NCBI GenBank assembly: GCA_039809905.1
Contig: JBDHVY010000001.1
Location: forward strand, 780,001-812,000
DNA: 32,000 bases
Direction: 5' to 3'
DNA from: Candidatus Babelota bacterium
GTDB taxonomy: Bacteria; Babelota; Babeliae; Babelales; Vermiphilaceae
Positions 338 to 24,002 of the stretch are shown here, in pieces. The notes beneath the pieces are model-generated. The model was not told the origin of the DNA. It searched no databases and worked only from the letters and a program-made list of their open reading frames with translations. Every line of letters starts with the position of its first letter. The stretch's first letter is position 1. The translations under genes were made by a program, and so were the position numbers.

Positions 338-2911
338 ATGCTCAATTTTATAGCGAAAATCATTAGAAAAACCCGCGAAAGCGATCCAAAAAATGTCTGG
401 AATTGGGGTCCCCATTCGACATGTAATAAAGAATGGGGTTTAATTTTTCTTTTTTTTTGTCACTCATTACAAGGTTTAACAACACTGCATGTAACATCAA
501 GCTCAGATAATAATCCGGGTGGTATGGGGGATATTGGTGATTTGAGATATTGCTTAAATGTAATGAATCAAAATCTCAACTCAATCCCTGATGATTATGC
601 AATTGTTTTTGATTTTCCCATGACTATTCAACTTAATGGAATTTTGCCCATTATTAATAATTCTTCAAATCCGGTCAATATCACTATTGGTAATACTGGA
701 TCAACTCCTACCGTAACTATCGATGGTAATAGCGGCGCTTATAGTGGATTTTTTATACCAATGGGAAATGTAACCATCCAAAATATGATTTTTCAAAATT
801 TGAGTGCAAAAGGTGGTGATGGTGGGGACGGAATTTCCGGTGGTGGTGGTGGAATGGGTGCTGGAGGAGCTATTTATGTACCACAATTGTTTTTAAACGG
901 ATCGTATCCTTCAATTATTTTGATCAATGTATTAATAGACAATTGCTCTGCTATCGGTGGAAATGGAGGAAGTTACCTCGGTCTTTCTTCCACTGGCAAT
1001 GAAGGTGGCGGAGGGGGTGGGGGCTTTGGTGGTAATGGTGGTTCCATTACTACTGTTGGAAGCACTGGAGGTGGCGGTGGAGGTGGCTTTGGAGGGAATG
1101 GTGGAGACGTTACCCTTTCAATTGATAATTCTGGAGGTGGCGGCGGAGGTGGCGGTGGTATTGGATCTCGTGCTGCCATAGGTTCTTTCACTAATCTGGG
1201 CAACGGAGGATCAGATCAAAATTCAGGTGCAGATGGAAATGGATATGGGCTTTTGATTTCCGGTGGTTCAGGCGCAGGAGGAAGCAGCGGAGGTAATAAC
1301 GCAGGCGGTGGCGGTGGAGGCGCTATTGGAGGTGGCGGAGGAGGAAGTCTTGGATCAGATGGAATGCAGCCTCAAGGTAATATACCACCAGGAGGTAGTG
1401 TTGTACCTTCAGGTGGAAATGGAGGAGATGGTGGTGGTGGCGGCGGAGCTGCTATTGTTGTAACAAGTTTTACCAATGGTATAGATGGCCAAGCGGGTAG
1501 TGGTGGTTATGCTGGTGGAGGCGGTGGTGGAGCCGGAACAGGATCTTATGATGCTGCTTATACCGTGCAAGGTGGATCCGGCGGTATGGGCGGAGGAGGC
1601 GGTGGCGGAGGGGTGAATCAATCTGGTTCTACTTCCGCATCAGGTGGTAATTCTCTTGGCGGCGGTGGTGGTGCAGGAGGCGGTCCTTCCGATGGTTCCA
1701 TTGCTCAAGGTGGAGCTGATATAGGAAATCTTGGTGGAGGATCAGGAGGAGCTGGCGCAAATAGTTATGGACCAGGTTTTGGTGGCGGCGGTGGCGGCGG
1801 CGGAAGTGGTTTGGGCGGAGCTATATTTGTGGACAATAATCTGAATTTAACGATACAAGCTTTTTCCGGGATTCCAACCATTTTTAATACAACAAATAAT
1901 CTGACCCAAGCAGGAGTTCATGGAACTGGAGGTCCTGGTGCTGAAGATGGCCTAGATGGATCAGCGCTGGGAAATAGTATTTTTCTACGATCAGGATCTT
2001 CTTTAACATTTATAGCGCAAGATACTAATGATCTTCTCACTTTGGGTGACCACGTTGCATTTACAGATGGTACAATCTTTGGTGCGGGAGGAACGAGTGT
2101 CTTTGTAAGAGGAAATGGAACAGTTGTTTACAATGGAACAACAGATTATTCAGGAACTATTAGCATTAACAATGCGAATTTCAAAGTGAATGGATTAATC
2201 AATGGAGCATCTATTTCAGTTTGTAGAAATATTAGTATTGGTCAACAAAGGGGTACTCTGAGCGGAATGGGAACAGTAACGGGAAATGTTTTTGCAAATT
2301 CTGGAACAATATCGCCTGATGCGGGACAAACACTTACTCTAGCAAGTTTGACTCTAACTCCAGCAGATCAAAATAATAATACTCTTGGAAGTCTTGTGCA
2401 CATAGCGATTGATTTGAATGGTACATCATTAGTTTCTGTTACTGGTTCTGCGTCGTTAGCAGGTACATTAGAGATTGCATTAGATCAAAATGCTCAGCCT
2501 GGAACGTATACCATTCTCAATTCGTCTGGTATTACCGGTGCTTTTGGTGCTGTTACATTTACGGGAGCGGTTCCTAATTATACACTTTCTTACTTGCCTG
2601 TAGGTAATCCTACGTTTGTACAATTTGATTTTTTAGGTTACCCGAATCCATCACTTCACAAAAAAAAGTTTCGTAAAGTTCTTGCAGGTTATCATCAAGC
2701 GTATCTTTTCAAAAAAGTTGTTAAAGCTATCGGAAAAAATGAAAATAAAGCTGAGTTTCGTCTACGCAAAAAAGAAAGAGATTGGCTAAAAGATTATAAA
2801 GAGCTTCATGGTGATAATAAATTTGTAAAAAATCATTTTAAAAAATTAAAGAAGTTCAAGAGTAAAGAAGTGAGACACATAGTTCATCTGATCAAAAAAG
2901 GTAAGAAATAA
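338..2911 (+). CDS. Glycine-rich autotransporter/Pmp-like passenger protein with lysine-rich C-terminal tail and no beta-barrel translocator
   Basis: 857-aa ORF. Two GGAI motifs (GAGGAIYV, GLGGAIFVDNNLNLT) sit in a long (GGx)n region. The passenger-end signature is classical: RGTLSGMGTVTGNVFANSGTISPD...LVSVTGSASLAGTLEIAL...PGTYTILNSSGITGAFG. The last ~85 aa are K-rich (HKKKFRKV...LIKKGKK). SD-like AAGGTAGGA lies 7 nt before ATG 338, but the conserved hairpin motif at 405-438 falls inside this 5' extension, so the alternative start ATG 524 (MGDIGDL...) is possible. A strong terminator follows. Confidence 0.75.
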   Translation: MLNFIAKIIRKTRESDPKNVWNWGPHSTCNKEWGLIFLFFCHSLQGLTTLHVTSSSDNNPGGMGDIGDLRYCLNVMNQNLNSIPDDYAIVFDFPMTIQLNGILPIINNSSNPVNITIGNTGSTPTVTIDGNSGAYSGFFIPMGNVTIQNMIFQNLSAKGGDGGDGISGGGGGMGAGGAIYVPQLFLNGSYPSIILINVLIDNCSAIGGNGGSYLGLSSTGNEGGGGGGGFGGNGGSITTVGSTGGGGGGGFGGNGGDVTLSIDNSGGGGGGGGGIGSRAAIGSFTNLGNGGSDQNSGADGNGYGLLISGGSGAGGSSGGNNAGGGGGGAIGGGGGGSLGSDGMQPQGNIPPGGSVVPSGGNGGDGGGGGGAAIVVTSFTNGIDGQAGSGGYAGGGGGGAGTGSYDAAYTVQGGSGGMGGGGGGGGVNQSGSTSASGGNSLGGGGGAGGGPSDGSIAQGGADIGNLGGGSGGAGANSYGPGFGGGGGGGGSGLGGAIFVDNNLNLTIQAFSGIPTIFNTTNNLTQAGVHGTGGPGAEDGLDGSALGNSIFLRSGSSLTFIAQDTNDLLTLGDHVAFTDGTIFGAGGTSVFVRGNGTVVYNGTTDYSGTISINNANFKVNGLINGASISVCRNISIGQQRGTLSGMGTVTGNVFANSGTISPDAGQTLTLASLTLTPADQNNNTLGSLVHIAIDLNGTSLVSVTGSASLAGTLEIALDQNAQPGTYTILNSSGITGAFGAVTFTGAVPNYTLSYLPVGNPTFVQFDFLGYPNPSLHKKKFRKVLAGYHQAYLFKKVVKAIGKNENKAEFRLRKKERDWLKDYKELHGDNKFVKNHFKKLKKFKSKEVRHIVHLIKKGKK
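405..438 (+). promoter_or_regulatory. Conserved hairpin motif, copy 1 (GGGG-T-CCCCATTC / 13-nt loop / GAATGGGG), followed by a T-rich tract
   Basis: Read directly: GGGG 405-408, T 409, CCCCATTC 410-417, loop gacatgtaataaa 418-430, GAATGGGG 431-438, then TTTAATTTTTCTTTTTTTTT to 458. Same architecture as the copies at 9237, 10649 and 23970. Confidence 0.55.
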
Positions 2912-3074: not shown

Positions 3075-4430
3075 ATGCCGTACGCACGTCATACTATTTT
3101 CGCATCTATATTATTTTTCCAATTTGCCTTGTCAAACAATTCCATTGATTCTAATAATATTCATGATGTGCATTTCGATATAAAATCATTACACGCGGCT
3201 GAAATACCAGAAGAAATTCGTAAAAAAATTATTGATGAAATAGCTCAACAACAAATAAATTCTAACCCATCAAAAAAAACCGAATTTTTCACTAAAAAAG
3301 ATATTGAAGAGATGGACTTTGTCTTTGAATCTTCGCCAGAAGAAGCTCAGTCTATAGTCAATTATCTACACGATTCTAACTATTTCCCGGGTGTTGAAGG
3401 ATATAGATCAGTCTTTTTTGTGGGAGAACCTGGAACCGGAAAATCCATTATGGCTAAAGCAATAGCACATAAGATGATGCAAGCAGGTTGGGAATATAGT
3501 TTTCTATCAAGCACATCTTTTTTAAAAGAATATCGCAATCAAACAGCTATACACCTAAAAAAAGAACTAGAAAAAATTGAGGCTTCTAATAAACCCACTA
3601 TTTTAATTATCGATGAAATACATCGCTTACTTGAAAACACTGAAAGTAAGCATCATGACACAGATGAAACAGCAACAGCGTTGTGGACATTTCTTGACAG
3701 GCAAAAAAACAATAATAACTTCTTTCTTATTGGAACAATGAATCGTGTACATAAATTACCAAAACCAGTTAAAAGTAGAATCATCTCTGATTTTATAGAA
3801 TTCCCATTAATGACTGACCCAATAAGAAAAAACAATATTCTTCGTAGAAACCTATCGACTAAAAATAGTCAAATGAGTATAGAAATAACTGAAAGTTTTT
3901 TAATTAAAGAATTAGAAAAAATAAATCCTTGTTCTGGACGAGATTTAGAAAAATTATCAAAAGAAATCTTGGTGCAAAGTAAATTAAGTAATAAAAATCA
4001 ACCTTATCCAATAACTATCACCCAAAATAATATTTCTCAAGGAATGAATAACTACCTAAGGAAAAAAGCCAGAATAAAATATGATATGGAAGAAGAAACG
4101 GATGAAGAACGACAAAATCGTTATCATAAAGAAAATCTAGAAATGCATGAACGTCATTTTGTTCAACAGCAAAAAATCAATATAGCCATACATGATCATC
4201 AAAATAATGCTAACCAAAATGTTTGTAGTGGTCATCTTAATCTTGAAAGTAGAGCACATATTGATTCTTTAATTTCAGATGAACAAAACCAACTTTACAA
4301 AAGCATGATGGCAAATACTGAAGCAAGAAAAGCCCAAGACGCTGCAGATAAAAAAGCTGCTGAAAAAGAAAAAGCGAAAAGAGATGCAGAAAATTCTTTA
4401 ATAAACCAATTTAAAAAGCTATTTTCATGA
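3075..4430 (+). CDS. AAA+ ATPase with N-terminal signal peptide/anchor and C-terminal charged coiled-coil tail
   Basis: Walker A GEPGTGKS, Walker B ILIIDEIH, sensor-1/SRH region LIGTMNRVHKLPKPVKSR. N-terminus MPYARHTIFASILFFQFALS is signal-like. GGAG lies upstream of the ATG. The stop overlaps the next start (ATGA at 4427-4430). Confidence 0.8.
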   Translation: MPYARHTIFASILFFQFALSNNSIDSNNIHDVHFDIKSLHAAEIPEEIRKKIIDEIAQQQINSNPSKKTEFFTKKDIEEMDFVFESSPEEAQSIVNYLHDSNYFPGVEGYRSVFFVGEPGTGKSIMAKAIAHKMMQAGWEYSFLSSTSFLKEYRNQTAIHLKKELEKIEASNKPTILIIDEIHRLLENTESKHHDTDETATALWTFLDRQKNNNNFFLIGTMNRVHKLPKPVKSRIISDFIEFPLMTDPIRKNNILRRNLSTKNSQMSIEITESFLIKELEKINPCSGRDLEKLSKEILVQSKLSNKNQPYPITITQNNISQGMNNYLRKKARIKYDMEEETDEERQNRYHKENLEMHERHFVQQQKINIAIHDHQNNANQNVCSGHLNLESRAHIDSLISDEQNQLYKSMMANTEARKAQDAADKKAAEKEKAKRDAENSLINQFKKLFS

Positions 4431-5581
4431 ATAAACTTAAATTAATTACTTTAATAATTTTATCCAGTTATCTATTAGTTGCTCAAGAAAAACAACAAAC
4501 TCCAACAGATAAAACTGTAAATTTTAATATCTCTCCATTATATCTGCCGGACCCTGAATATTTTCAACAAAATGTAGCAAAAGAAAACATTCCTCAAGAA
4601 AGTCAAAAAACAAATAAGGCTCTATTGACAAGGCCTGCACGATGGATCGTAGAATCAGCAATGGAAAATGCCCCAAAATTAGTAAAAGGTATCTTTACCT
4701 ATTTACAATTATGTTCACGTTGCGCTATTTCAACTCAAACCATTATCAACATACCGTCTTTTCATCGTTTTATTTTAGTAGGACCGCCTGGATCAGGTAA
4801 AACAACCTTAGCTTACGCTATAGCTGAAATGCTTGGATATACCTACACGTTTATTCCTGCGGCAGATCTTTTAGGAAAATTTAGAAATGAAACTGCTATT
4901 AATTTGCAAAAAATTATACAAAAGTGTATCTCTGATGGAGGAAAAAGAATAATCATTATTGATGAATTACACAAACTATTTGAACATCATAAAATCGAAC
5001 AAACAGATCATTCTGAAACTGCTGCCAGTTTTTGGCTTATTCTCGATCATATAGAAAAACACCTTCCTAATATTATTATCATTGGGACTGCTAATAATGT
5101 TGATAAACTGCCTCCGGAAATTAAAAGTCGCTTTGCAGGAAAGATTATTAACATACAAGCTCCTAATAAAGAACAAAAAATTCAAATTTTTAAAAATAGT
5201 ATTCTACATGATCAATCAATAGAGCTTGATCAATCAATTACTGATGTTTTTATTACAAAAATAATACAGCAAATGGAACAACAATCATTACGTGACATAC
5301 GTTCATTAATTGATTCAGCAAAAATATTTTACTATGCGGAGCAAATTACTTCTCATCCAAAACTGCCTATTATTTTAAGAAAAATACATTTTCAGCAAGC
5401 GCTTAATCAATTGCAGGTAGAATCGCAAGTATTAAAAGAAAACTTCTCAGACCAACTTTGTAAAAAGTTGCAACCTTGGGGTGTTGTTTTTGCAATTGCC
5501 GCCAACATAATCACACTCATAAAAGGATCACACGAATTAGCATGTAAAACTGAGGTTCTGCTAAAAAAATACAGTCACTAA
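4427..5581 (+). CDS. AAA+ ATPase with N-terminal signal peptide and C-terminal hydrophobic segment
   Basis: Walker A GPPGSGKT, Walker B IIIIDELH, IIGTANNVDKLPPEIKSRF. N-terminus MNKLKLITLIILSSYLLVAQE is signal-like. C-terminal WGVVFAIAANIITLI is hydrophobic. Translationally coupled to the preceding AAA+ gene. Confidence 0.8.
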   Translation: MNKLKLITLIILSSYLLVAQEKQQTPTDKTVNFNISPLYLPDPEYFQQNVAKENIPQESQKTNKALLTRPARWIVESAMENAPKLVKGIFTYLQLCSRCAISTQTIINIPSFHRFILVGPPGSGKTTLAYAIAEMLGYTYTFIPAADLLGKFRNETAINLQKIIQKCISDGGKRIIIIDELHKLFEHHKIEQTDHSETAASFWLILDHIEKHLPNIIIIGTANNVDKLPPEIKSRFAGKIINIQAPNKEQKIQIFKNSILHDQSIELDQSITDVFITKIIQQMEQQSLRDIRSLIDSAKIFYYAEQITSHPKLPIILRKIHFQQALNQLQVESQVLKENFSDQLCKKLQPWGVVFAIAANIITLIKGSHELACKTEVLLKKYSH

Positions 5582-5621
5582 AAGCAAAACAAATTTATTA
5601 TATTTTTTTTGGATAAACTAT

Positions 5622-8600
5622 ATGTTTCATATAAAAAAAAGCATATTAACCACTATTTTCACATTTTTTATTTTTTCTCATATTTTCGCATTAAAGGTTC
5701 AAGATACTGATCCTGAACCTTTCTTCGGCATGGAAAGAAATTCTGAAACAAGTACAAGCACTACTACTGAAACTACGACTACAAACAGTATAAATACATT
5801 TGATACACAACCTTACAATTTTAGTCGCGAAACAAACACAGAAAAAATTGTATCTTATACCATTACTTATGAAGATCGCATTATTCTTGCCCAAGACTAT
5901 TACAACAAAGAAACAGGAGATAGCGAACATGGGAAAATGCAACTTTATCCTGATATATCTCTTATGAATGAAGGAAGACAATCATTTGAAATACCTTCAG
6001 ATCTAAATTCTAATACTCAAAACAATTCTAACACAGATAGCATTAATAATCCTCATCCATCAAACAAACAACAAGATCATGATGATTTTGCTAACAAACT
6101 TAAAGATGATATCCTCGACTCTCGTAGGCAAGAAATAGAAAATAGACAAACATCTCAAACAAGCTCACAACAAAATAATATTCGTATAATACAACGTCAA
6201 AAAGCTTTATATGAATTAGATAAATTGCGCACTTCATCTACTGATCCAAAAGAAATATTTGCACCGCCAAGCGTACAAGCTCATTTCAAACAATTTAAAT
6301 ATGATCTTATAGAAAAATATAGGGATAAAAAAGTATTTTTCTTTTCAAGAAAAAAAACATTTCCAACAGCAGAATCTGAAATCAAATTTGCCAATGCACT
6401 TTCAATACAAGTAGCAGAATATCTTTCAAAAATACGATACGCCAATCTAATTGATGCTAAAGTGGCTTTTGCTGAATTAAAAGAGCTATGGCCTTGGGAA
6501 CGTGATCATACTTTTTTAACAAGTAGTTTTGTCGATGGAACTGGCGAAAATGGCTTTATTGCCCATTTGGGTATTGATATAATGAAAATTGCCGAAAGAG
6601 ATTTAATTTCACGTTTTGATTACATTTCTCAACACGTTAACCCAGAATCATTGAAAAATATTCAAGAGTTTAGAGAGAAATGTATCATTTTTCAACAAAT
6701 AGGAAATCGCAGTGCTCTTTTGCAAGAAGAACTCCGGTTGAGGCATGAGCTTTTCGAAAATGGTAAAAATGATAATTTAATAACAAATATTTGTTATGCG
6801 ATAGCAGAAAAAATATATTCTGACTCAATAACAAATGTATTATACGAGATTGTGCATGCTCAATCTCTTGAAAAAGCCTACAATCAATTACATTACTTAG
6901 AAATGCAAATATTAGATCAAGCGAAACAACATAATATTACTCTTACTGATGAGATCAAAAATTTTATTGTAAAGCAATATGGTTTTGATCTGATTGAAGC
7001 TGCATATAATTGTTATACTTCTCGTCCCGATTACATCAAAACAGTAAATGATCAACCTGTTTTATCCAATAACAATCTATCTTCTATCTTACATAATATT
7101 GAACATAAAGCTCTACCTATAGCTCATGCAGAATTAGTTCATCTTCAAAAACAGATAGTTAAAACTTTTGAGTCTTCTAAGATTGCCGACAAAGCTACAC
7201 GAAAAGGTTTAATGGTAAAAAAATTCGGTATGGATATTCTTGAAGAAGCAGATAACACTTATAAAAATCGCTCAGATCATAAAAAACTTGTTAAATCTTT
7301 CATAGATATTGATGTTAACAAAGCAACCGCAACAATACTTGAAAACAACAACCGTTATGAATCAGTAGCGAATGAGATGAGTAACTTAGCAGAACGTATA
7401 TTTGGTAATGCTCGCCTATGCAACCTCAGCAATCTACCCAAAATAGAATCGCATGTCTATGATTCAATAGAGGCTATGAGAATAGCACAAGATCACCCTA
7501 CGTTTATTTTTAATTTCTCAATGGTTAATCACACTCTTGGTGACATTCAACAATTGGCACATGCTATTCTCAGCGGAACGCATCCAGTATTGCAAAGATC
7601 ATCCGAGCTATTAATGGGAGGTTTGGAAACATTTTTTAAGGGACTTAATCCGGTTACACAAGCTTCTAATATGGGACATCTTGCTTGCGACCTGGGATCT
7701 CTTTTAAAAAAGAGCGGTACTGCTTTGTGGAACGACCCTATTGCCGTAATACATAACGGTATGAACACAACATGCACATTGATTGATCTGATAAGAAACA
7801 CAGCTGATTTTACCTCAGATCTGACTGTTGGCAAACTATATCTATCTCCCGAAGAATATAAGCAACGCACGGATCAATTCTGTGCAATGATTGAACCGTT
7901 GCAAGATGTTACAGCTCAACAATGTTTTAACTTTACATTTCAATTGGCTGCAGATGTTATTGTTTGGAAAGGTCTTGGGACTGCCTATACATTCCTTAAA
8001 GAGATAGATGTATTAGAAAAGCTTGGTGGATCAGCGGCTGTTATAGCACGCACATTCAAGAAAGGTTTTGATACGCATCTTGCCAATAATCCTATTGTGG
8101 TTACTGCTGAGGGGATTACAATAAAAATCTCTGAAGCCATGCACAATATTAATAATAATGGTGGCAACAACATCATAAAAAGCACTAAAGATTTATTTGA
8201 AAGTGCTTATGCTAAAATAGCTATTGATTTAGAAGAAAAAATAAAAAAAATACGTGAAGCTTATATTCTTAAACCAAACCACGACTTTCCAAATTTTGGT
8301 AATAGACACATTAAAATCGCTCTTGAACATATTTTAGGTGTAGAACTAAAATGGAGTGAATTAGGATTTTTATTAGATCTTAGCGGTTTTCATCACGATT
8401 TTATGGGAGCTGTAGAAAAAAGCAAAGCATTTAAGTTTCTTAATAAGGTTATGAATGAAAACGGATGCTATAGTGCTGATATAGTTTTAGAGGGTAAAAC
8501 TTTTCCAAAAACTTTTTTTCCTCAACATTGGTCACAAAGAGAAGTAGCTGATAAAATATACGAAGCATATTACAACTTTATAAATAGTGGCGCACCTCTT

Positions 8601-8717
8601 GAATTAGGAAGAGGGGGGAAGTATGTTGTTAAGGGATACACCAGCGAAGGCATAAAAATAGAGATGCATGTAACGCAAAAAGGCCTTATAACAACTGCTT
8701 ATCCTACTTTTAAATAA
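5622..8717 (+). CDS. Large secreted polymorphic-toxin-like protein with C-terminal EndoU-like RNase domain
   Basis: Signal peptide MFHIKKSILTTIFTFFIFSHIFA; S/T/N/Q-rich linker; helical repeat region. A conserved pre-toxin block is repeated downstream in two orphan copies. The C-terminal ~130 aa carry EndoU-type motifs: EHILGVE (cf. XendoU FEHVFVGE), SGFHHDF (cf. GFHNW), FFPQHWS and a terminal ITTAYP. Confidence 0.7.
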   Translation: MFHIKKSILTTIFTFFIFSHIFALKVQDTDPEPFFGMERNSETSTSTTTETTTTNSINTFDTQPYNFSRETNTEKIVSYTITYEDRIILAQDYYNKETGDSEHGKMQLYPDISLMNEGRQSFEIPSDLNSNTQNNSNTDSINNPHPSNKQQDHDDFANKLKDDILDSRRQEIENRQTSQTSSQQNNIRIIQRQKALYELDKLRTSSTDPKEIFAPPSVQAHFKQFKYDLIEKYRDKKVFFFSRKKTFPTAESEIKFANALSIQVAEYLSKIRYANLIDAKVAFAELKELWPWERDHTFLTSSFVDGTGENGFIAHLGIDIMKIAERDLISRFDYISQHVNPESLKNIQEFREKCIIFQQIGNRSALLQEELRLRHELFENGKNDNLITNICYAIAEKIYSDSITNVLYEIVHAQSLEKAYNQLHYLEMQILDQAKQHNITLTDEIKNFIVKQYGFDLIEAAYNCYTSRPDYIKTVNDQPVLSNNNLSSILHNIEHKALPIAHAELVHLQKQIVKTFESSKIADKATRKGLMVKKFGMDILEEADNTYKNRSDHKKLVKSFIDIDVNKATATILENNNRYESVANEMSNLAERIFGNARLCNLSNLPKIESHVYDSIEAMRIAQDHPTFIFNFSMVNHTLGDIQQLAHAILSGTHPVLQRSSELLMGGLETFFKGLNPVTQASNMGHLACDLGSLLKKSGTALWNDPIAVIHNGMNTTCTLIDLIRNTADFTSDLTVGKLYLSPEEYKQRTDQFCAMIEPLQDVTAQQCFNFTFQLAADVIVWKGLGTAYTFLKEIDVLEKLGGSAAVIARTFKKGFDTHLANNPIVVTAEGITIKISEAMHNINNNGGNNIIKSTKDLFESAYAKIAIDLEEKIKKIREAYILKPNHDFPNFGNRHIKIALEHILGVELKWSELGFLLDLSGFHHDFMGAVEKSKAFKFLNKVMNENGCYSADIVLEGKTFPKTFFPQHWSQREVADKIYEAYYNFINSGAPLELGRGGKYVVKGYTSEGIKIEMHVTQKGLITTAYPTFK

Positions 8718-8729
8718 AGGATTACCAAA

Positions 8730-9107
8730 ATGGATAGTGTAGAATTTTTTCTTGATATGAATCACGGAGATTACTCATCTAAAAATGCATCCAGCATAGA
8801 AATGTGTAATCTTGGGTATTTCTTAGCAAGCGATGTTAAATTTCGACCTTCAATTTTTAAAGAATATGCTTTTAATGATCAACAACAGTTTATGAGTTCC
8901 AATGCTACAACATTAGAAAAACAAAATGGCTACATACTATTAAGAGATCAATACCCAGAAGAAGAAATTCCAACCAACCTAAAAATGTCGCGGGATAAAT
9001 TTATAAAATTACTTGAGGACTGGGAAGAAAAAGTATGTAAACTAATGCCCAAAGAAATTTTGATAAAATATGAAAATGGTGAATTTATTATAGAAACAAA
9101 AGATTAA
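8730..9107 (+). CDS. Putative cognate immunity protein 1
   Basis: 125-aa ORF starting 12 nt after the toxin stop with AGGA upstream and no signal peptide. It is a diverged paralog of the ORF that follows the orphan toxin (shared C-terminus W[EQ]EKVCKL.PKE..IKYEN.EF.IETKD). The call is by position and context only. Confidence 0.6.
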   Translation: MDSVEFFLDMNHGDYSSKNASSIEMCNLGYFLASDVKFRPSIFKEYAFNDQQQFMSSNATTLEKQNGYILLRDQYPEEEIPTNLKMSRDKFIKLLEDWEEKVCKLMPKEILIKYENGEFIIETKD

Positions 9108-9236
9108 TTAGATAATTTTCCAATTTTTATATAAGTTTCAAACTCATCCTTTCTACATTTGATCTAGGATTGCTTTTAAAGCGGTAATTATATGAACGGA
9201 ACAGATACATTGGTTTAATTAAGAATCTTTTAATTT

Positions 9237-9270
9237 GGGGTCCCCAATCGGAATATAATAGAGATTGGGG
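9237..9270 (+). promoter_or_regulatory. Conserved hairpin motif, copy 2 (leader of orphan cassette 1)
   Basis: GGGG 9237-9240, T, CCCCAATC 9242-9249, loop ggaatataataga 9250-9262 (contains TATAAT), GATTGGGG 9263-9270. It sits in a ~65-nt block (9217-9282) nearly identical to 10629-10694. Confidence 0.6.
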
Positions 9271-9330
9271 TTATAAAAACTATATCTATCTCCCGAAGAA
9301 TATAAGCAACGCACGGATCAATTCTGTGCA

Positions 9331-10155
9331 ATGATTGAACCATTGCAAGATGTTACAGCTCAACAATGTTTTAACTTTGCATTTCAATTAGCTGCAGATG
9401 TTATTGTTTGGAAAGGTTTTGGGACTGCCTATACATTCCTTAAAGAAATAGACGTGTTAGAAAAGCTTGGCGGATCAGCGGCTGTTGTAGCACGCACATT
9501 CAAAAAAGGTTTTGATACGCATCTTGCAAATAATCCTGTTGTGGTTACTGCTGAGGGCGTTACAATAAAAATCTCTGAAGCCATGCACAATATTAATAGT
9601 AGTGGTGGTGGTAAAAACATTATTAATAGTTCTAAAGCATTACTGGAAAGTGTTTATGCAAAAATTGTTCTTGAATTGGAACCTGAAATAGTTGCAATCA
9701 AAAAAACATACGATCGAGTAAAAGATGGCTTTGCTCAAATTGCTAACAAAATCACAATGGAATATAAACATATTTTAGGTATGGAATTAGATCTCAGTAA
9801 AAAAGGAAAATTAACTATTGGTGGTTTTCACCATGATTTAAAAAATACAATAGAAAAAACGGATATCTTGAGGTTTACCAATAGAGTTTCTTATGAGCAT
9901 GGTTTTTATAAAGCAACATTATTTGATGGGGCAAATTTTGTTAAAGATGTTACATTTTTCCCAGCTGAATGGTCACGTGATACCGTAATTAGTAAAATAT
10001 ATGAAGCTTATGACAATTTTATAAAAAATGGAGCAACAGGGTACATAGAAAAAGGTGGAAAATACATAGTTGATGGATTAATTAGCGAAGGAATTACTAT
10101 TCGTATGTTTATTACTAAAAACGGTCGTATAGTAACCGCTTACCCTAAGCTTTAA
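9331..10155 (+). CDS. Orphan toxin C-terminal cassette (pre-toxin block plus divergent EndoU-like domain), no signal peptide
   Basis: The first ~90 codons are near-identical in DNA to 7887-8155 of the full-length toxin. The sequence then diverges but keeps the EndoU-type motifs (KHILGME, GGFHHDL, FFPAEWS, IVTAYP). An in-frame TAA lies immediately upstream, at the hairpin/homology junction. Confidence 0.7.
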   Translation: MIEPLQDVTAQQCFNFAFQLAADVIVWKGFGTAYTFLKEIDVLEKLGGSAAVVARTFKKGFDTHLANNPVVVTAEGVTIKISEAMHNINSSGGGKNIINSSKALLESVYAKIVLELEPEIVAIKKTYDRVKDGFAQIANKITMEYKHILGMELDLSKKGKLTIGGFHHDLKNTIEKTDILRFTNRVSYEHGFYKATLFDGANFVKDVTFFPAEWSRDTVISKIYEAYDNFIKNGATGYIEKGGKYIVDGLISEGITIRMFITKNGRIVTAYPKL

Positions 10156-10170
10156 ACTTGGAAAATAAAT

Positions 10171-10551
10171 ATGGAATTTGTAAAATTATTATTAAGCGCA
10201 AATCATAAAAGCTATTCTTATATTGATGCATCTGATATCAAAATGGGGATTCTTGGTTTTTTTTTAACAGATGATGTTAGATGTGGTTCTTCACCATTTA
10301 AAGAATGGGCTTTTAATGATAGTTGGGGCGACGAATGTAGTGGTAATATTACGGGATTAGAAAAAGAAGGTAATTACATATTGCTCACTGATTTGTATTC
10401 TGATGAAGAAACCCCAAGTGTGTTAAAAATGACTCGTAAGCAATATGTACAAGTTATAACTGACTGGCAAGAAAAAGTATGCAAATTAAAACCAAAAGAA
10501 GTAATCATCAAATACGAAAATGAAGAATTCGTTATCGAAACAAAAGATTAG
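10171..10551 (+). CDS. Putative cognate immunity protein 2
   Basis: 126-aa ORF 15 nt after the orphan toxin stop. It is a paralog of 8730-9107, with a variable N-terminal half and a conserved C-terminal half. Confidence 0.6.
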   Translation: MEFVKLLLSANHKSYSYIDASDIKMGILGFFLTDDVRCGSSPFKEWAFNDSWGDECSGNITGLEKEGNYILLTDLYSDEETPSVLKMTRKQYVQVITDWQEKVCKLKPKEVIIKYENEEFVIETKD

Positions 10552-10648
10552 TCTAATCTGCAGGGATCGTTTTTAAGAAAATTTGGTTGCTCTATCGAAT
10601 GATATTATTACGGTAATATCATTGATTGAATTAAGAATCTTTTAATTT

Positions 10649-10682
10649 GGGGTCCCCAATCGGCATATAATAGAGATTGGGG
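10649..10682 (+). promoter_or_regulatory. Conserved hairpin motif, copy 3 (leader of truncated orphan stub)
   Basis: GGGG 10649-10652, T, CCCCAATC 10654-10661, loop ggcatataataga 10662-10674, GATTGGGG 10675-10682. One loop base differs from copy 2. Confidence 0.6.
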
Positions 10683-10742
10683 TTATAAAAACAATATCTA
10701 TCTCCCGAAGAATATAAGCAACGCGCTGATACATTCTGTGCA

Positions 10743-11006
10743 ATGATTGAACCGTTGCAAGATGTTACAGCTCAACAATGTTTTAACTTTACATTTCAAT
10801 TGGCTGCAGATGTTGTTGCTTGGAAAGGTCTTGGGACTGCCTATACATTTCTTAAAGAAATAGATGTATTAGAAAAACGTGGTGGATCAGCGGCTGTTGT
10901 AGCACGTACATTGCGCTATATTGAAGAAATATATAATGAACTGGTTTATCCGAGCCATCAAGAGCGTATTGAGATCGCTCAAAAATATTTAACACAAAGA
11001 ATATAA
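10743..11006 (+). pseudogene. Truncated third orphan cassette (pre-toxin block only, no toxin domain and no immunity gene)
   Basis: 87-aa ORF. The first ~57 aa match the pre-toxin block (MIEPLQDVTAQQCFNFTFQLAADV...). Homology stops near 10912, followed by an unrelated 30-aa tail. The stop lies 2 nt from the stop of the convergent gene. Confidence 0.6.
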
Positions 11007-11008
11007 AT

Positions 11009-11674
11009 TTATGGAGTAAATTGTTCCAAGTTATATATTTCTAATTCTTTTTCAATGCGTTCTACTTTTTTTACCATTGTTTCAAAACCTTTTTCACCAA
11101 ATAGTTTATGTTCAAGATCTTCAAATTTTTCTCCCAATTCTTTAAATTCTGTTTCGCTGATAAGAGAGCGTACTTGAGGGAATAAAATGGTATCTTCACG
11201 TGCTTCATGGGGACGATACATTCTGATAAATTTTTGTAATGCATTTTTTATAGATTTTTTAGTCGATTTATCCAGCTTATTTTTTGATGATAGTTTTTGA
11301 AGTTGAGCAGTAATTTCACGTCCTTTATTATGTTGATTTCTTAATGTTTTGATAAGGCGAACTTCTTTTTTTTGTTTTTCAAAAATAGGAAATAGATAAG
11401 TTTCTTCGAGTTTTTCATGATAATCTTCGATAAATGATTTTATGATATTTGCTGTATTAATAAGAGTATCAATTTGAAAATCAATATTGTTTTCAATTCT
11501 TTTAATGATTTCTTCGTAAATTAATAGAACGCGATTTAATACTCCATGTTCACGCATTAAATCTTCGGTTAAGGGAATTTCAAACTCTTCTTTTTTTTTA
11601 TTCATAGATAAATCCTTATCATCAGCAAACATATACTGATTCGTTATAATCATTAATAATAAAAGATATTTCAT
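11009..11674 (-). CDS. Secreted hemerythrin-like (HHE cation-binding) domain protein
   Basis: H/E-bearing helices LMREHGVLNRVLLIYEE, FIEDYHEKLEETYLFP and MYRPHEAREDTILFP. Signal-like MKYLLLLMIITNQYMFA. I prefer ATG at 11674 (AAAGGAA upstream) to the TTG at 11692 used by the ORF track. Confidence 0.7.
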   Translation of the reverse strand: MKYLLLLMIITNQYMFADDKDLSMNKKKEEFEIPLTEDLMREHGVLNRVLLIYEEIIKRIENNIDFQIDTLINTANIIKSFIEDYHEKLEETYLFPIFEKQKKEVRLIKTLRNQHNKGREITAQLQKLSSKNKLDKSTKKSIKNALQKFIRMYRPHEAREDTILFPQVRSLISETEFKELGEKFEDLEHKLFGEKGFETMVKKVERIEKELEIYNLEQFTP

Positions 11675-11727
11675 GTGATTCCTTTGTCTCAAAATTGATA
11701 AAAATTATTGAACCTGATTGTACGTAT

Positions 11728-12853: not shown

Positions 12854-12902
12854 TATTATGGTTAAAGTTCTGTTGTTTTGCTACATTCTTATAAACAAAG
12901 AT
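12854..12902 (+). repeat. Conserved ~50-bp upstream module, copy B (before WD40-like paralog A)
   Basis: See 11728-11777. It ends 20 nt before ATG 12922. Confidence 0.6.
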
Positions 12903-12921
12903 TTCATAACATAAAGAAAAT

Positions 12922-14034
12922 ATGCACTATAATCAAAGCTTTGCCATAACTATTTGTTTTTTTATCGCAATTACAGAATCTCATGGGATGGAAAATAAGA
13001 ATAAATTTGATCTCCATAAGATAGAAGAAATAACGGCAGTCAAATTTCCACGACGTGTAAAATATGTCTCAAACGATACTATTGCTATTAATAGCTTAAG
13101 CCGCTTTAATATTCTAGATCTAGAAACAAAAGCAACTTTATGCATAGATAAAAGAGATCATAATCGGGAATATGTTAGCTTTCCTATGCTTTATAGCAAT
13201 AATAAAATAATTGTTTCTTCTACTAACGAAAAACTAGTTATTTATGATAAACAAAAAAATGTAACAACATGTTTCATACCAATGCAAAATCCCATTTGGG
13301 GATTAGCTGTGCATCCAAGTAGTAATACGGTATTTTTAGTTTCTCCACAAAGGAAGGTGCTCACAAAATATAACTATGTAACAAACATATCCAAAGATGT
13401 TATTATACTGGGAGAAAGTTTTTCATTGATAGATATTCATCCAAAAAAAGACATTATGTGTATAACTCGTTATTCAGGCAATCTTTCTTTTCATACATTA
13501 GACAACTTGAAGGAACCCTTTAAAACTATTACCTTTGCAAGACCTATTATATATCTTTTTTGCCGATATAGTTTGGATGGATCTCGCATAGTAGCTGGGC
13601 ATAACAAAACAGTATATATCATAGACCCAGATAAAAATGCGTATTGTTCTCTTAAGCCTTTCAAAAATGAACGATTTAATACAGTGGCCTTCCATCCAGA
13701 TGGTTTGACCTTAGCAACCTTAGCCACACGTAAAATATCAAAAACAGATATAAAATCTGTTATACATTATTGGGATTTGCAAACAAAAGAATGTATTTAT
13801 ACAACGTCTGCATTAGGAGATAGCTATGGTCATGATCTTTCTTTTTCCCCAAACGGATTAGAAGTTCTTGTTGCGCTTAATGATAAATGCATAAGAACAT
13901 TGGTTCCTTTTGCAGTGAACAAAAAATGTATAGATCTTTTATTCTGGTTAAATCAACTTAAAGAACAAGAAAAAATACCGCAAGATATTGTAAGATATAG
14001 TATTAATGCTTTTCTGAGATACTTGAGTTTCTAA
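12922..14034 (+). CDS. Secreted WD40-like beta-propeller protein, paralog A
   Basis: Signal-like N-terminus. Repeated propeller-blade patterns: LAVHPSSNTVFL, IDIHPKKDIMCI, CRYSLDGSRIVAG, VAFHPDGLTLATLA...IHYWDL, LSFSPNGLEVLVA. Tandem paralog of 14108-15226. Confidence 0.65.
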   Translation: MHYNQSFAITICFFIAITESHGMENKNKFDLHKIEEITAVKFPRRVKYVSNDTIAINSLSRFNILDLETKATLCIDKRDHNREYVSFPMLYSNNKIIVSSTNEKLVIYDKQKNVTTCFIPMQNPIWGLAVHPSSNTVFLVSPQRKVLTKYNYVTNISKDVIILGESFSLIDIHPKKDIMCITRYSGNLSFHTLDNLKEPFKTITFARPIIYLFCRYSLDGSRIVAGHNKTVYIIDPDKNAYCSLKPFKNERFNTVAFHPDGLTLATLATRKISKTDIKSVIHYWDLQTKECIYTTSALGDSYGHDLSFSPNGLEVLVALNDKCIRTLVPFAVNKKCIDLLFWLNQLKEQEKIPQDIVRYSINAFLRYLSF

Positions 14035-14107
14035 TTTTCTTTATTAGTCAAAGCTACATAGCTCTGCTATATTTTTATAAACAATAACATTAAACATAAA
14101 GAAAAGC

Positions 14108-15226
14108 ATGTCTTACCATAAAAAATTTATCATCAATTTTTGTCTTTTGATTGCAGTAGCACTGTCTTATGGAGCAGAAAATAATAAAAAAAATGATTTT
14201 TATAAGATTCAAGAAATAAAGATAGTTCCTGTTCCACTAGCTATAAAATATATTTCCAATAATACTGTTGCTATTAATAGCGTAAGCTTATTTAGCATTG
14301 TAGATCTAGAAGCAAAAACTATTATGCATATAGACAACAGATATCATAATCGTGAATATCGGAATTTACCTATACTTTATAGCAATGATAAAACAATTTT
14401 TTCGTCTACTAACAAAAAGCTCAGTATTTATGATGAACAAAAAAATGTAAAAACACACTTTATATCAAGAAAAAATAGCATTCAGGGACTAGCTATACAT
14501 CCAAACAGTAATACTGTGTTCTTATGCTGTCCACAAAGAAAAATAATCACAAAATGTAACTATAGAACAAGAATATCCGAAGATGTTATTATACCGGGAG
14601 AAGGTTTCTCATCGATAGATATTCATCCAAAAAAAGGCATTATGTGTATAGCTCGTTCTTCAGGTAATCTTTCTTTTCATCGGTTAAGTAATTTGCAAAA
14701 ATCATTTAAGACTATTACCTTTATAAAACCTATAAACACCATATACTTTTTTTGCCGATATAGTTTAGATGGATCTTGCATAGCAGTTTGGGATAATGAG
14801 ATAGTGCATATCATAGATCCAGATAAAAATACGTATTGTTCTCTCAAGCCTTTCAAAAATGAAATCTTTAATATTATTGCATTCCATCCAGATAGTTTGA
14901 CCTTAGCAACCTTAGCTGCACGGAACCCATTAAAAGCAGATGTAAAAACTGTTATACATTATTGGGATTTGAAAACCAAAGAATGTATTTATACAACGTC
15001 TGAATTAGGAGATGGCTATGCCTGTGATATTTCTTTTTCTCCAGATGGTTTAGAAGTTATTGTTGTGATCAAGAATAAATGCATAAGAACATTGGTTCCT
15101 TTTGCAGTGAACAAAAAATGTATAGATCTTTTATTCTGGTTAAATCAACTTAAAGAACAAGAAAAAATACCGCAAGATATTGTAAGATATAGTATTAATG
15201 CTTTTCTGAGGCATCTACGTTTTTAA
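14108..15226 (+). CDS. Secreted WD40-like beta-propeller protein, paralog B
   Basis: Collinear with paralog A along its whole length. The final 136 nt before the last few codons (15075-15210) are identical to 13883-14018. Confidence 0.65.
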   Translation: MSYHKKFIINFCLLIAVALSYGAENNKKNDFYKIQEIKIVPVPLAIKYISNNTVAINSVSLFSIVDLEAKTIMHIDNRYHNREYRNLPILYSNDKTIFSSTNKKLSIYDEQKNVKTHFISRKNSIQGLAIHPNSNTVFLCCPQRKIITKCNYRTRISEDVIIPGEGFSSIDIHPKKGIMCIARSSGNLSFHRLSNLQKSFKTITFIKPINTIYFFCRYSLDGSCIAVWDNEIVHIIDPDKNTYCSLKPFKNEIFNIIAFHPDSLTLATLAARNPLKADVKTVIHYWDLKTKECIYTTSELGDGYACDISFSPDGLEVIVVIKNKCIRTLVPFAVNKKCIDLLFWLNQLKEQEKIPQDIVRYSINAFLRHLRF

Positions 15227-18597: not shown

Positions 18598-20547
18598 TTA
18601 TAATCGCCTTCGAAACTTCTTTTCAATTTCAGGTAATGATAAAAGCCATCCCGTAGGACGTCCGTGAGGGCATGAAAAACGATTCGGAGTTTTTTCTAGA
18701 TCTGATAATAATTGATTCATCTTTTCTTGTGTAAGAATATCGCCGGCTTTGACAGCAGCTTTACACGCCATTTGTGCTTGTAGTTTATGATTGATTGTTT
18801 TTTTAAATTCATTTGCATCAAGCGATTGGCACTCAATGATCCAGGAAATTGCTTCTTTAATAATATCGGTAAGAGATTCATTTTTTAAGTGCACGGGAAG
18901 TGATTGGATAATCAATTGATCACTTGCGCACTGTTCTATCAAGATGCCGTGTTGAATAAATATATCAAGATGTGGAATTATGGTATCCATATCGTTACTA
19001 TTGAGTGTGATGATATGAGGAAAAAGCAATTGAATTGTTGCAACTTCATGAAAACGTTGTGAAAATAACTCATACAAAATACGTTCATGTGCTGCGTGTT
19101 GATCTACTAAAAATAATCCGTCTTCTTTTTCAACCAACAAGTATGTATTATTGTATTGGCCGATAAGACGTCCTTGTTCCTGGCTTGGCAGGGCAAAAGT
19201 TGGTTGATCATAGGTTTCTAATTTAGTTTCATGTGAAGAGATATTTGTGTTTGTATCCTTTAACCCCCAGCTTCGTTTGTCTTCGCCGAGGTCACTCGGT
19301 GAGGGAAATAGGAGGGTGTCGCTCATTACAAATGGGTTCTGGATGTTCGATTCTGATTGTTGCAATTCTTTGCGCTCATCCTGGACTTGTTGAAAGATAA
19401 AGCGCTCTGATTGTTCAATCTTATTTTTCCCGTTCGCATTGAGCGTGTCGAAATGAGTGAATGTTCCAAAAGTAGGTTCGAATGGCTTAAAATTCTGCAT
19501 CTGTTCTGCATAAATGTTTTGTTCTGATTTAAATGTTACATCCTTTTTCAAATGCTTCGATAAATTATCTTCTAAAGCTTTTTTTACGGTTTGTTGCATT
19601 ATCTGTTCCACGCGGCGTGGATGAAGAAATTTAACTTCTTCTTTGCGAGGATGAATATTAATATCAACTTCATGCGTAGGTATGGTAATATGTATGATGC
19701 CAATCGGATATCGGCCATTAGGTATAACGTTTGCATATCCTTTGATAAGTGCGCTGCTTAAATGCTGATTTTTTACCCATCGTTTATTAACAAAAAAATA
19801 AATATTGCTGCGATCATAGCGGTAATTCTGATGATCAGAAATAATAGCATGCAATGAAATATCGCCTGTTACTGATGTTTCAAGAAGATGTTTGTGCATG
19901 GCAGGTTCAAAAAGTTGTAATGCACGGTTTTTTACATTAGCGCTGATGGGGCAATTATGAATCTGTTTGCCTTCAGAAAATAAAGTAAAATGAATATGGG
20001 GATAATCAAAACAAAAAGCGTTAAAAAGAAGCTGAATAGCGCGCCATTCGGTTTGTGTTGCTTTTAAAAATTTTTTACGAGCAGGAACATTAAAAAATAA
20101 ATCGATAATGCTGATATCAGTTCCTGTTGCACACGCAGCTGAACTAATCTGCATTGTTGTATTAGGTTCACTTATAATACATGTTCCTTCCACGTTCTGT
20201 TCTTCTTTTGTCAGCAAGTTAATTTTACTGACTGATGCAATGCTTGCAAGAGCTTCACCACGAAACCCAAAGGTATCAACAGTTTGTAATTCATCAACAG
20301 AAGTGATTTTGCTTGTTGCATGCCGATCAAAACATTTTTGTGCGTCGATAGTATCCATGCCACACCCATTATCAACAACACGAATTAATTGTTTTCCGCC
20401 ATCTTCTATGTAGATGGTAATACGTGTTGCATGAGCATCAATGGAGTTTTCAACTAATTCTTTTACGATGTTTGCAGGGCGTTCAACAACTTCTCCCGCT
20501 GCAATTTTTTGTGCTTCATGTGCTGATAATTGTTTTATTTTAGGCAT
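18598..20547 (-). CDS. mutL: DNA mismatch repair protein MutL (endonuclease-type)
   Basis: GHKL ATPase motifs AGEVVERPANIVKELVENSIDA and VDNGCGM. C-terminal endonuclease motif DQHAAHERILYE and CPHGRP. Confidence 0.95.
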   Translation of the reverse strand: MPKIKQLSAHEAQKIAAGEVVERPANIVKELVENSIDAHATRITIYIEDGGKQLIRVVDNGCGMDTIDAQKCFDRHATSKITSVDELQTVDTFGFRGEALASIASVSKINLLTKEEQNVEGTCIISEPNTTMQISSAACATGTDISIIDLFFNVPARKKFLKATQTEWRAIQLLFNAFCFDYPHIHFTLFSEGKQIHNCPISANVKNRALQLFEPAMHKHLLETSVTGDISLHAIISDHQNYRYDRSNIYFFVNKRWVKNQHLSSALIKGYANVIPNGRYPIGIIHITIPTHEVDINIHPRKEEVKFLHPRRVEQIMQQTVKKALEDNLSKHLKKDVTFKSEQNIYAEQMQNFKPFEPTFGTFTHFDTLNANGKNKIEQSERFIFQQVQDERKELQQSESNIQNPFVMSDTLLFPSPSDLGEDKRSWGLKDTNTNISSHETKLETYDQPTFALPSQEQGRLIGQYNNTYLLVEKEDGLFLVDQHAAHERILYELFSQRFHEVATIQLLFPHIITLNSNDMDTIIPHLDIFIQHGILIEQCASDQLIIQSLPVHLKNESLTDIIKEAISWIIECQSLDANEFKKTINHKLQAQMACKAAVKAGDILTQEKMNQLLSDLEKTPNRFSCPHGRPTGWLLSLPEIEKKFRRRL

Positions 20548-23935: not shown

Positions 23936-23969
23936 TTTGTAAAAATAGAGATTAAAAAACTTTTTTAAT

Positions 23970-24002
23970 GGGTCCCTAGTCGGAATAAAATAAAGACTGG
24001 GG
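23970..24002 (+). promoter_or_regulatory. Conserved hairpin motif, copy 4 (zwf-gnd intercistronic; 3' arm is the only SD-like run before gnd)
   Basis: GGG 23970-23972, T, CCCTAGTC 23974-23981, loop ggaataaaataaa 23982-23994, GACTGGGG 23995-24002. The gnd ATG is at 24012. Confidence 0.6.

Follow-up and report, generated by a model that had tools for sequence, protein, structure and literature searches.

A probable family of non-autonomous palindromic repeats in Dependentiae genomes

We examined a 32,000-nt stretch of the genome of a Candidatus Babelota bacterium (contig JBDHVY010000001.1, positions 780,001 to 812,000; hereafter the window), in which a conserved hairpin occurs four times. With a probability of about 0.7, these hairpins belong to a non-autonomous selfish palindromic repeat family of Dependentiae (Babeliales) genomes, similar to repetitive extragenic palindromic (REP) sequences, REPIN doublets and Rickettsia palindromic elements (RPEs). 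The initial annotation had offered an element of this type, resembling REP sequences or MITEs (short for miniature inverted-repeat transposable elements), as one of several explanations, and it is borne out by many dispersed copies in both orientations, site polymorphism, target duplications and in-frame insertions in coding sequence. The family is apparently a so far undescribed small palindromic mobile repeat of Dependentiae (TM6) genomes. Searches with the sequence string and of the Dependentiae/TM6 literature, including genome papers, found no description of the element, and the genome papers do not mention palindromic repeats; the only mobile element reported for Babela is one IS4 transposase. 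The window gave no match in Rfam at gathering thresholds and, at E ≤ 10, only a chance microRNA match of 13 bits.

The four copies, all on the forward strand, were confirmed by reading, by a pattern scan and by a covariance model (Table 1). The pattern GGGTCCCNNNTC-N7-AAT-N3-GANNNGGGTT, which leaves the variable stem positions free, has four exact matches in the window, all on the forward strand, compared to 0.00 in 100 dinucleotide shuffles. A repeat finder puts the four copies in one family (D9), and the only window matches of the family covariance model are these same copies. As originally described, the loop has 13 nt in every copy, with GGG(G)T upstream of the stem and TT after it; the stem of copy 2 recurs in copy 3, position 6 is T:A, A:T or G:C, and the T:G wobble at position 4 is present in copy 4. 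Two parts of that description require amendment. Copies 2 and 3 are one base apart and lie inside a duplicated EndoU toxin/immunity cassette, so the window holds three independent copies rather than four. Furthermore, the copies had all been placed 5′ of gene starts, which fails for copy 1: it lies inside an open reading frame (ORF), downstream of the start codon.

In the window, each of the four copies points the same way as the genes that flank it. The GC content of the window is 30-37%, except for one glycine-rich gene, and the closest relatives of its zwf product and its Pmp-like protein are labelled Candidatus Babeliales, Babeliaceae or Dependentiae. The fold-energy z-scores of the extended copy regions are unremarkable (-0.55 to -2.3), and thermodynamics alone would not flag the element.

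Table 1. Hairpin copies and associated features, in window coordinates
Feature	Position	Strand	Parts	Basis or description
In-frame insertion relative to L126 orthologue	351-434	+		84 nt (28 codons), 84 alignment gap columns; boundaries ambiguous by a few nt within 346-442
Copy 1, core	405-438	+	GGGG 405-408; T 409; 5′ arm CCCCATTC 410-417; folded loop GAC-AT-GTA-AT-AAA 418-430; 3′ arm GAATGGGG 431-438	Covariance model 58.8 bits; pattern, repeat finder
Copy 2, 5′ arm	9212-9236	+		Pyrimidine-rich, ...AAGAATCTTTTAATTT; matches the family's conserved TTTCTCTTAA-NN flank
Copy 2, core	9237-9270	+	GGGG 9237-9240; T 9241; 5′ arm CCCCAATC 9242-9249; loop GGA-AT-ATA-AT-AGA 9250-9262; 3′ arm GATTGGGG 9263-9270	Covariance model 68.1 bits; repeat families D2, D9
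Copy 3, core	10649-10682	+		Covariance model 64.3 bits; one loop difference from copy 2 (A to C)
Copy 4, 5′ arm	23946-23969	+		GATTAAAAAACTTTTTTAAT, small A/T palindrome; missing from the uninterrupted zwf-gnd spacer of L124
Copy 4, core	23970-24002	+	GGG 23970-23972; T 23973; 5′ arm CCCTAGTC 23974-23981; loop GGA-AT-AAA-AT-AAA 23982-23994; 3′ arm GACTGGGG 23995-24002	Covariance model 55.8 bits

Fold and strand asymmetry of the element

The unit consists of an invariant GGGG-T head followed by a hairpin, with about 25 nt of pyrimidine-rich sequence (TTTCTCTTAA-NN) before the head and TTAAAA after the stem. The outer stem has 7-8 bp, always starts with CCCC(A/G) and always ends with TGGGG. Its positions 6-8 covary (UA, AU, CG and GC), nine further pair types occur in it, and its covariation score is 0.39, compared to 0.16 in shuffles. 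Because the outer-stem seed was selected for pairing, the stronger evidence for covariation comes from the interior that had been taken for a loop.

For that interior, we used 61 distinct copies chosen by their outer stem only. Loop positions 4 and 10 are paired in 93% of them (AT 43, GC 10, CG 2 and TA 1) and positions 5 and 9 in 89% (TA 27, CG 16, TG 5, GC 4 and AT 2), compared to 71% and 60%, respectively, in column shuffles. None of 2000 shuffles attains the observed pairing, and shifted interior pairings stay at background level. The inner helix is 98% paired in alignment A2 and 85% in the disjoint alignment A5, with double changes at both pairs. G1/A13, A3/G11 and G6/A8 occur in 49, 43 and 36 of the 61 copies, respectively. 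Judged from this covariation, the 13-nt interior is a fold of the form (GNA)(RY)(GNA)(RY)(GNA): a predicted symmetric GNA/GNA internal loop, a covarying 2-bp helix and a GNA triloop, equivalently 2.6 GNAAY repeats. The compensatory stem changes and G·T wobbles noted at the outset are real, and a further covarying helix lies inside the presumed loop. The window loops fit the same scheme, of which their TATAAT look is a local accident.

The exceptions to Watson-Crick pairing at outer-stem positions 4-8 and in the inner helix, with one exception allowed, comprise 18 G·T or T·G and no A·C pairs. On the complementary strand, the same element would hold C·A mismatches and UNC/UNC loops. The occurrence of G·T exceptions without any A·C indicates that one defined strand has been selected to fold single-stranded. 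The folding strand may be DNA or RNA, between which the data do not discriminate.

A similar geometry is found in the (GGAAT)n/(TGGAA)n satellite, whose purine-rich strand folds back with A:T pairs flanked by sheared G·A mismatches. In an interior such as GGAAT-GAAAT-GAA, A-T can likewise pair with A-T while GNA triplets face one another. The analogy is structural only, as the satellite is a eukaryotic tandem repeat whereas the present element is dispersed and bacterial, with a geometry derived from covariation. Two variants (L023 2941-3030 and L002 5346-5432) carry an extra stem-loop of about 30 nt in place of the GNA triloop (e.g. ...GAAATGA-CCTGTCCTTCGTAGCTCGAAGAGCGAAGTAGG-AAATGG...), perhaps a nested insertion or else an inner helix that has been extended.

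The fold also bears on whether the hairpins could be sites in duplex DNA, either a promoter whose loop supplies the -10 hexamer or an operator in which two inverted half-sites stand 21 bp apart; the initial annotation had considered a promoter or operator. The window loops do hold TATAAT, TGTAAT or TAAAAT, and about two helical turns separate the inverted arms. However, only the copies of this genome carry the -10-like hexamer: across the family, loops have the consensus GNAAYGNARYGNA, and position 2 of the hexamer is not A in the commonest ones (e.g. GGAATGAAATGAA and GTAACAAAGTGAA). A promoter scan is silent at the element, with 9 promoter-like sites in the region compared to 9.9 expected. 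Several stem sequences coexist per genome, and arms that differ within one genome yet stay complementary are needless for a dimer that reads sequence; G·T without A·C pairs makes no sense in a duplex; and copies occur inside genes and between convergent genes. A promoter or operator is therefore highly improbable.

Copy number, insertion sites and orientation

We scanned metagenomes with the pattern GGGGTCCCCAWT-N13-15-AWTGGGG and matched at least 120 loci. Among the matches listed, 55 low-GC loci (30-42%) have the same 13-nt interior, the upstream TTTCTCTTAA-NN and the downstream TTAAAA. A descriptor scan of the low-GC flanks found copies beyond the reach of the search pattern, including stems CCCCATGT/ACATGGGG, CCCCATAT/ATATGGGG, CCCCATC/GATGGGG, CCCCGCTT/AAGTGGGG, CCCCGGCT/AGCTGGGG and CCCTGGTTT/AAACTGGGG, and a covariance model seeded with 27 copies yielded 128 matches in 372 kb. 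Four Dependentiae loci (L002, L123, L124/L126 and L125), which were fetched via zwf or Pmp-like homologues and thus independently of the motif, each hold 2-5 good matches per 21 kb, and extrapolation from this density gives roughly 100-250 copies per genome. A motif scan of a genome collection that evidently lacks the source species returned one chance match, in an alphaproteobacterial metagenome-assembled genome and without stem complementarity; the single match among viral contigs is an ordinary long terminator hairpin outside the family.

Genomes differ in whether the zwf-gnd junction and the 5′ end of the Pmp-like gene contain the element. Where the junction is empty, zwf and gnd either share 4 nt (L123 and L125) or stand 28 nt apart (L124). 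The filled spacer measures 76 nt in the window, with the element on the gene strand, and 83 nt in L002, with the element on the opposite strand. The L002 insert is flanked by a 22-nt direct repeat (top-strand reading AAATTTCATAATGTATTCCATT), and the homologous sequence is single in L124. Flanking direct repeats of 14-22 exact nt, or up to about 27 nt with mismatches, were found at no fewer than 6 of 88 copies, and 0 of 100 shuffles per copy match their length. The inserts bounded by such repeats span 61-68 nt for singlets and 93 nt for one doublet, with a fairly constant 5′ part (23-27 nt) and a 3′ part of 4-19 nt. At a tmRNA gene on the reverse strand of L023 (5720-6300), about 27 nt of the 5′ end and upstream sequence (GATCTTTGAAAAACTCTGGGGGCGTAC) are present three times, separated by two different element copies, as though the same target had been hit by two insertions in turn and duplicated each time.

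Several copies lie within coding sequence. The start codon ATGCTCAA at 338 is common to the window's Pmp-like gene (338-2911) and to the uninterrupted L126 orthologue; the 84-nt insertion of Table 1 contains copy 1 together with a 5′ module that includes CGCGAAAGCG, and the alignment resumes after it at the hydrophobic core of the signal peptide. Copy 1 is translated as WGPHSTCNKEWG. Nine close homologues of the Pmp-like protein all start M-x-K-F/L-R-Y-x-IFLFF and are about 26 residues shorter. By these alignments, a by-product of copy 1 is the putative addition of 28 codons to the signal peptide. L124 has an intact MutL whose variable linker contains an element in frame, with the complementary strand read as PYSDSLHTGTP. 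In L125 (6769-8658), MutL consists of separate N-terminal and C-terminal ORFs, split at the corresponding place, exactly at a degenerate element copy; this could be a pseudogene or a two-piece MutL.

These data also bear on a cis-acting RNA element, that is, a 5′ leader or intercistronic hairpin that stabilises or processes the adjacent forward-strand mRNAs or recruits a protein to them. It would account for the G·U-compatible wobbles on one strand only, for a GNA-rich interior that covaries as structured RNAs do, for the longer stem that replaces the triloop in some copies, a common pattern in RNAs, and for the co-directional window copies. The 3′ GGGG of copy 4, moreover, lies 9 nt upstream of the gnd ATG at 24012 and could be a sequestered Shine-Dalgarno sequence. 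In the family as a whole, however, orientation is random. Relative to their flanking genes, singlets are sense in 19 cases and antisense in 14 (binomial p = 0.49), lie between divergent genes in 10 and between convergent genes in 8, and doublet members are divided 6 to 6. Of 71 classifiable copies, 56 are intergenic. The genes next to copies are unrelated housekeeping genes that include rpsB, rpsI, ftsZ, ftsA, tsaD, cmk, ppa, ffh and dnaJ. The initial annotation had named random orientation and position as what would speak against an RNA function, and this is what the family displays. Further evidence against an RNA function comes from the one orthologous site at which two genomes carry the element, in opposite orientations, from the absence of the element from this zwf-gnd site in three relatives, from in-frame coding copies read on either strand, from target duplications at some copies and from the lack of an Rfam family match. 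We consider an RNA function of the family unlikely, with an incidental effect on individual mRNAs, e.g. gnd, being possible. For copy 4, the by-product of insertion is that zwf and gnd, which normally overlap, are separated and that the Shine-Dalgarno-like GGGG of gnd now lies in a stem.

Random orientation also weighs against a signal for transcription, whether the hairpin served as an intrinsic terminator or, in a lambda-nut-like antitermination site, as boxB next to an upstream TCTCTTAA as boxA. BoxA is CGCUCUUA in lambda and GCUCUUUAACAA in rrn operons, which the upstream TTTCTCTTAA resembles; the hairpin is GC-rich in an AT-rich genome, lies downstream of forward-strand genes in all four window cases, and related hairpins are found near tRNA, tmRNA and rRNA genes. 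Yet no U-tract follows the stem in either direction (TTAAAA or TTATAA follows), a terminator scan is negative, the 13-nt interior is oversized for a standard terminator loop, copies lie inside ORFs, and four copies for about 26 genes do not make a general terminator. The boxA/boxB idea, which the TCTCTTAA flank had prompted, was dropped on account of the random orientation, and a transcription signal of either kind is scarcely credible.

Relation to known repeats and a possible mode of spread

The nearest working analogy for the element is the REP/REPIN-RAYT system of Enterobacteria and Pseudomonas (PMC3116915, PMC3337134). Like a REP sequence, the element is a short imperfect palindrome (core 33-34 nt), mostly extragenic, present in both orientations and probably in hundreds of copies per genome, with a conserved short 5′ head, compensatory stem changes and long persistence in one lineage; as with REPINs, inverted doublets stand beside singlets that are plausibly decayed doublets. 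The differences are also clear. The head is GGGG followed by T, or by A on the partner unit of a doublet, rather than GTAG or GTGG; the interior is a defined (GNA)(RY)(GNA)(RY)(GNA) fold; some insertions have 14-27-bp target duplications, of which HUH single-strand transposition makes none; and the host belongs to an obligate intracellular phylum with reduced genomes. No gene for a RAYT (Y1 HUH) was found in the window, nor among the top Pfam families of 167 element-adjacent ORFs (about 0.4 Mb of relatives read).

Two other groups of small repeats share part of this behaviour. RPEs are likewise selfish palindromes of an obligate intracellular bacterium that are inserted in frame and translated (PMC10969869), and are set apart by size and host: they measure about 100-150 bp and are specific to Rickettsia, whereas the present element has about 55-85 nt and is mostly intergenic. 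MITEs such as Correia/NEMIS, ERIC and RUP (PMC10969869) are also small, non-coding, non-autonomous, interspersed and insertion-polymorphic, with target-site duplications. The present family departs from MITEs in several ways. The inserts examined for their ends (L002, L061 and L102) have unrelated ends without terminal inverted repeats; the target duplications are long, varying from 14 to 27 bp, where those of MITEs are short and of fixed length; folding is asymmetric between the strands; and no related autonomous insertion sequence was found.

Copies 2 and 3 called to mind a third comparison. They lie in a locus (5622-11006) where a gene for an EndoU-toxin protein (1031 amino acids) is followed by its immunity gene and by two orphan toxin/immunity modules, one at 9331-10551 and a truncated one at 10743-11006. 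Copy 2 stands between the immunity gene, which ends at 9107, and the first orphan module. A repeat (D2, at 7833, 9277 and 10689) marks the pre-toxin region common to the main toxin gene and both orphans, and homology to the main toxin gene starts at 9277 for the first orphan and at 10689 for the second, 7 nt past the hairpin. As a by-product, copies 2 and 3 are thus a marker of the 5′ boundary of both orphan modules.

This arrangement prompted the idea of an attC-type recombination site, active as folded single-stranded DNA and delimiting exchangeable toxin/immunity cassettes. As in integron attC sites, the fold is strand-specific and structure is kept above sequence, and the two copies stand exactly at cassette boundaries. 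Unlike attC sites, however, the copies are dispersed in both orientations, mostly beside housekeeping genes (zwf/gnd, mutL, rpsB, ftsZ and tRNA genes) rather than in cassette arrays. They lack R/L core sites, with no GTTRRRY-type core in the alignments, there is no integrase nearby or elsewhere in the window, and the CdiI-like immunity genes of L126 have no adjoining element. One insertion followed by duplication of the cassette can explain copies 2 and 3. The idea was dropped because of the dispersal, and we regard it as quite improbable.

Head-to-head doublets that share a GGGG-T/A-CCCC centre were found in L031, L033, L035, L051, L052, L071, L089, L108, L122 and L123; that of L031 reads CCCCATC-TTCAGTTCCTTTC-GATGGGG-T-CCCCAAT-GGAATGAAATGAA-ATTGGGG. 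We infer that singlets are doublets with a decayed left half, because the singlet 5′ arm plus GGGG has about the length of a left unit, because this arm is pyrimidine-rich, like the complement of the loop, and because singlet inserts bounded by duplications are doublet-sized. The 5′ arm of copy 2 would be one such decayed left half. REP singlets have been proposed to be decayed REPINs (PMC3116915, PMC3337134).

In the mechanism that we propose, the basic mobile unit would be a doublet of about 60 nt, most singlets being doublets that have lost their left half to decay. The folded top strand, as single-stranded DNA or possibly RNA, would be recognised by a structure-specific enzyme acting in trans, which would copy the unit to new sites; this is the handling proposed for REP/REPIN elements by RAYT transposases. 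The long target duplications would imply staggered target cuts about two helical turns apart, and with such cuts the chemistry would probably not be classical HUH/RAYT.

Several observations weigh against this assignment. The long, variable duplications do not fit the chemistry of RAYT or IS200/IS605, which leaves none, and the REP analogy may fail mechanistically. The window has no transposase. No mobilising enzyme is among the 25 best-represented Pfam families of 67 ORFs neighbouring low-GC copies, nor, apart from one IstB_IS21 helper ATPase, among those of 100 ORFs beside the high- and mid-GC hairpins described below, and in neither set is a family enriched; as each scan covered the top 25 families, a single-copy enzyme gene could hide below. 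With local GC skew as a proxy for the lagging-strand template, copies are oriented 29:18, which is not significant. Genome-wide copy number and distribution are extrapolated, with the source genome covered for 32 kb, and the taxonomy of the low-GC metagenome loci is assumed from composition, except for L002 and L123-L126. Finally, the strong conservation of the fold across divergent genomes could mean a role that benefits the host.

A bolder reading, which we hold only tentatively and think rather doubtful, is that the family is a new kind of mobile element: a quasi-palindromic doublet of about 60 nt with a (GNAAY)2GNA fold-back and a GGGG-T head, its strand-specific hairpin read by a single-strand-specific enzyme and inserted with 14-27-bp target duplications (about two helical turns), and persistent across the Dependentiae. 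Such a chemistry would fit neither HUH/RAYT, which makes no duplication, nor MITEs mobilised by DDE transposases, which have short fixed duplications and terminal inverted repeats. Long target duplications are known elsewhere from IS1634-type IS4 elements, where they are variable, and from casposons (14-15 bp), neither of which could be linked to the element. Dependentiae also encode Ku and LigD, with no link to the element established. Among small palindromic repeats, the structured and strand-specific interior, the long target duplications and the in-frame residence in proteins of an intracellular parasite are unusual features.

Neighbouring features and significance for Dependentiae genomes

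The metagenome scan also returned hairpins of other composition. In soil and sediment bacteria, high-GC loci (55-68% GC; L007, L012, L015, L019, L034, L048 and about 50 others) hold abundant hairpins of the form GGGGTCCCCAATCGCG-(4-6 nt)-CGCGATTGGGG(T)CCCC. The hairpins are near-perfect and long, with short loops, their outer GGGG and CCCC can also pair, they have a T·T mismatch at the level of GGGGTCCCC, and no RAYT is among the neighbouring families listed. Mid-GC hairpins (45-52% GC), e.g. GGGGTCCCCATTGTGCGGAGTTGCGCAATGGGG, stand in tRNA clusters (L064, L086, L087, L093, L100, L027, L029, L032 and L078), consistently antisense to and 80-150 nt downstream of a tRNA gene, with a conserved spacer between hairpin and tRNA (AAGCGTAAG..CGTG..AAGC.GGAAG.AATTTG). 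In L043 (2875-2907), a hairpin with a GGGGTCCCC-AWT foot lies in a 23S-5S rRNA spacer. Since the search pattern itself imposed this foot on all of them, the high- and mid-GC hairpins are candidate relatives of the element only.

A second, unrelated repeat, GAGCGC(T)...TCCTTCAACAAGTTCAGGAYGAGCGC, has 28 matches in the low-GC loci, often as inverted pairs, and often adjoins the GGGGTCCCC hairpin. In the window it lies on the reverse strand at 19372-19389, inside mutL (18598-20547); both here and in L124 it is in frame in the MutL linker, translated as ...FQQVQDER....

The interrupted gene at 338-2911 encodes a glycine-rich chlamydial-Pmp-like protein of 857 amino acids with GGAI and FxxN motifs and no Pfam match. 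Some of its homologues (1143-1193 amino acids) have an autotransporter beta-barrel (PF03797), which the window protein lacks, and a few close ones are labelled Chlamydiales or Parachlamydiales. In L126, mgsA directly follows the Pmp-like gene, whereas in the window the two are separated (3075-11700) by two secreted AAA ATPases, the toxin locus and further genes, and this region varies among relatives. Two pairs of tandem paralogues were also seen: WD40-like proteins at 12922-14034 and 14108-15226 (at most 85% DNA identity; region 12861-15226), and unannotated proteins of about 670 amino acids at 25626-27662 and 27849-29852 (70-76%). A conserved 53-nt 3′ segment (repeat D10) is common to three sites.

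Genome annotators can take the element for a regulatory RNA; it also breaks ORFs up or lengthens them, and it is a marker of recent rearrangements. Because it is built so regularly, with three GNA triplets and helices that covary, it lends itself to studies of the recognition of small palindromic repeats, and the combination of a strand-specific fold, long duplications and no visible transposase suggests a mobilising enzyme not yet recognised or a hijacked host function. Dependentiae are widespread, barely cultured intracellular parasites, and a dense family of structured repeats alters the picture of genomes with almost no mobile DNA. The family also reshapes their proteins, as seen in the signal peptide of a Pmp-like surface protein and in the linker of MutL.

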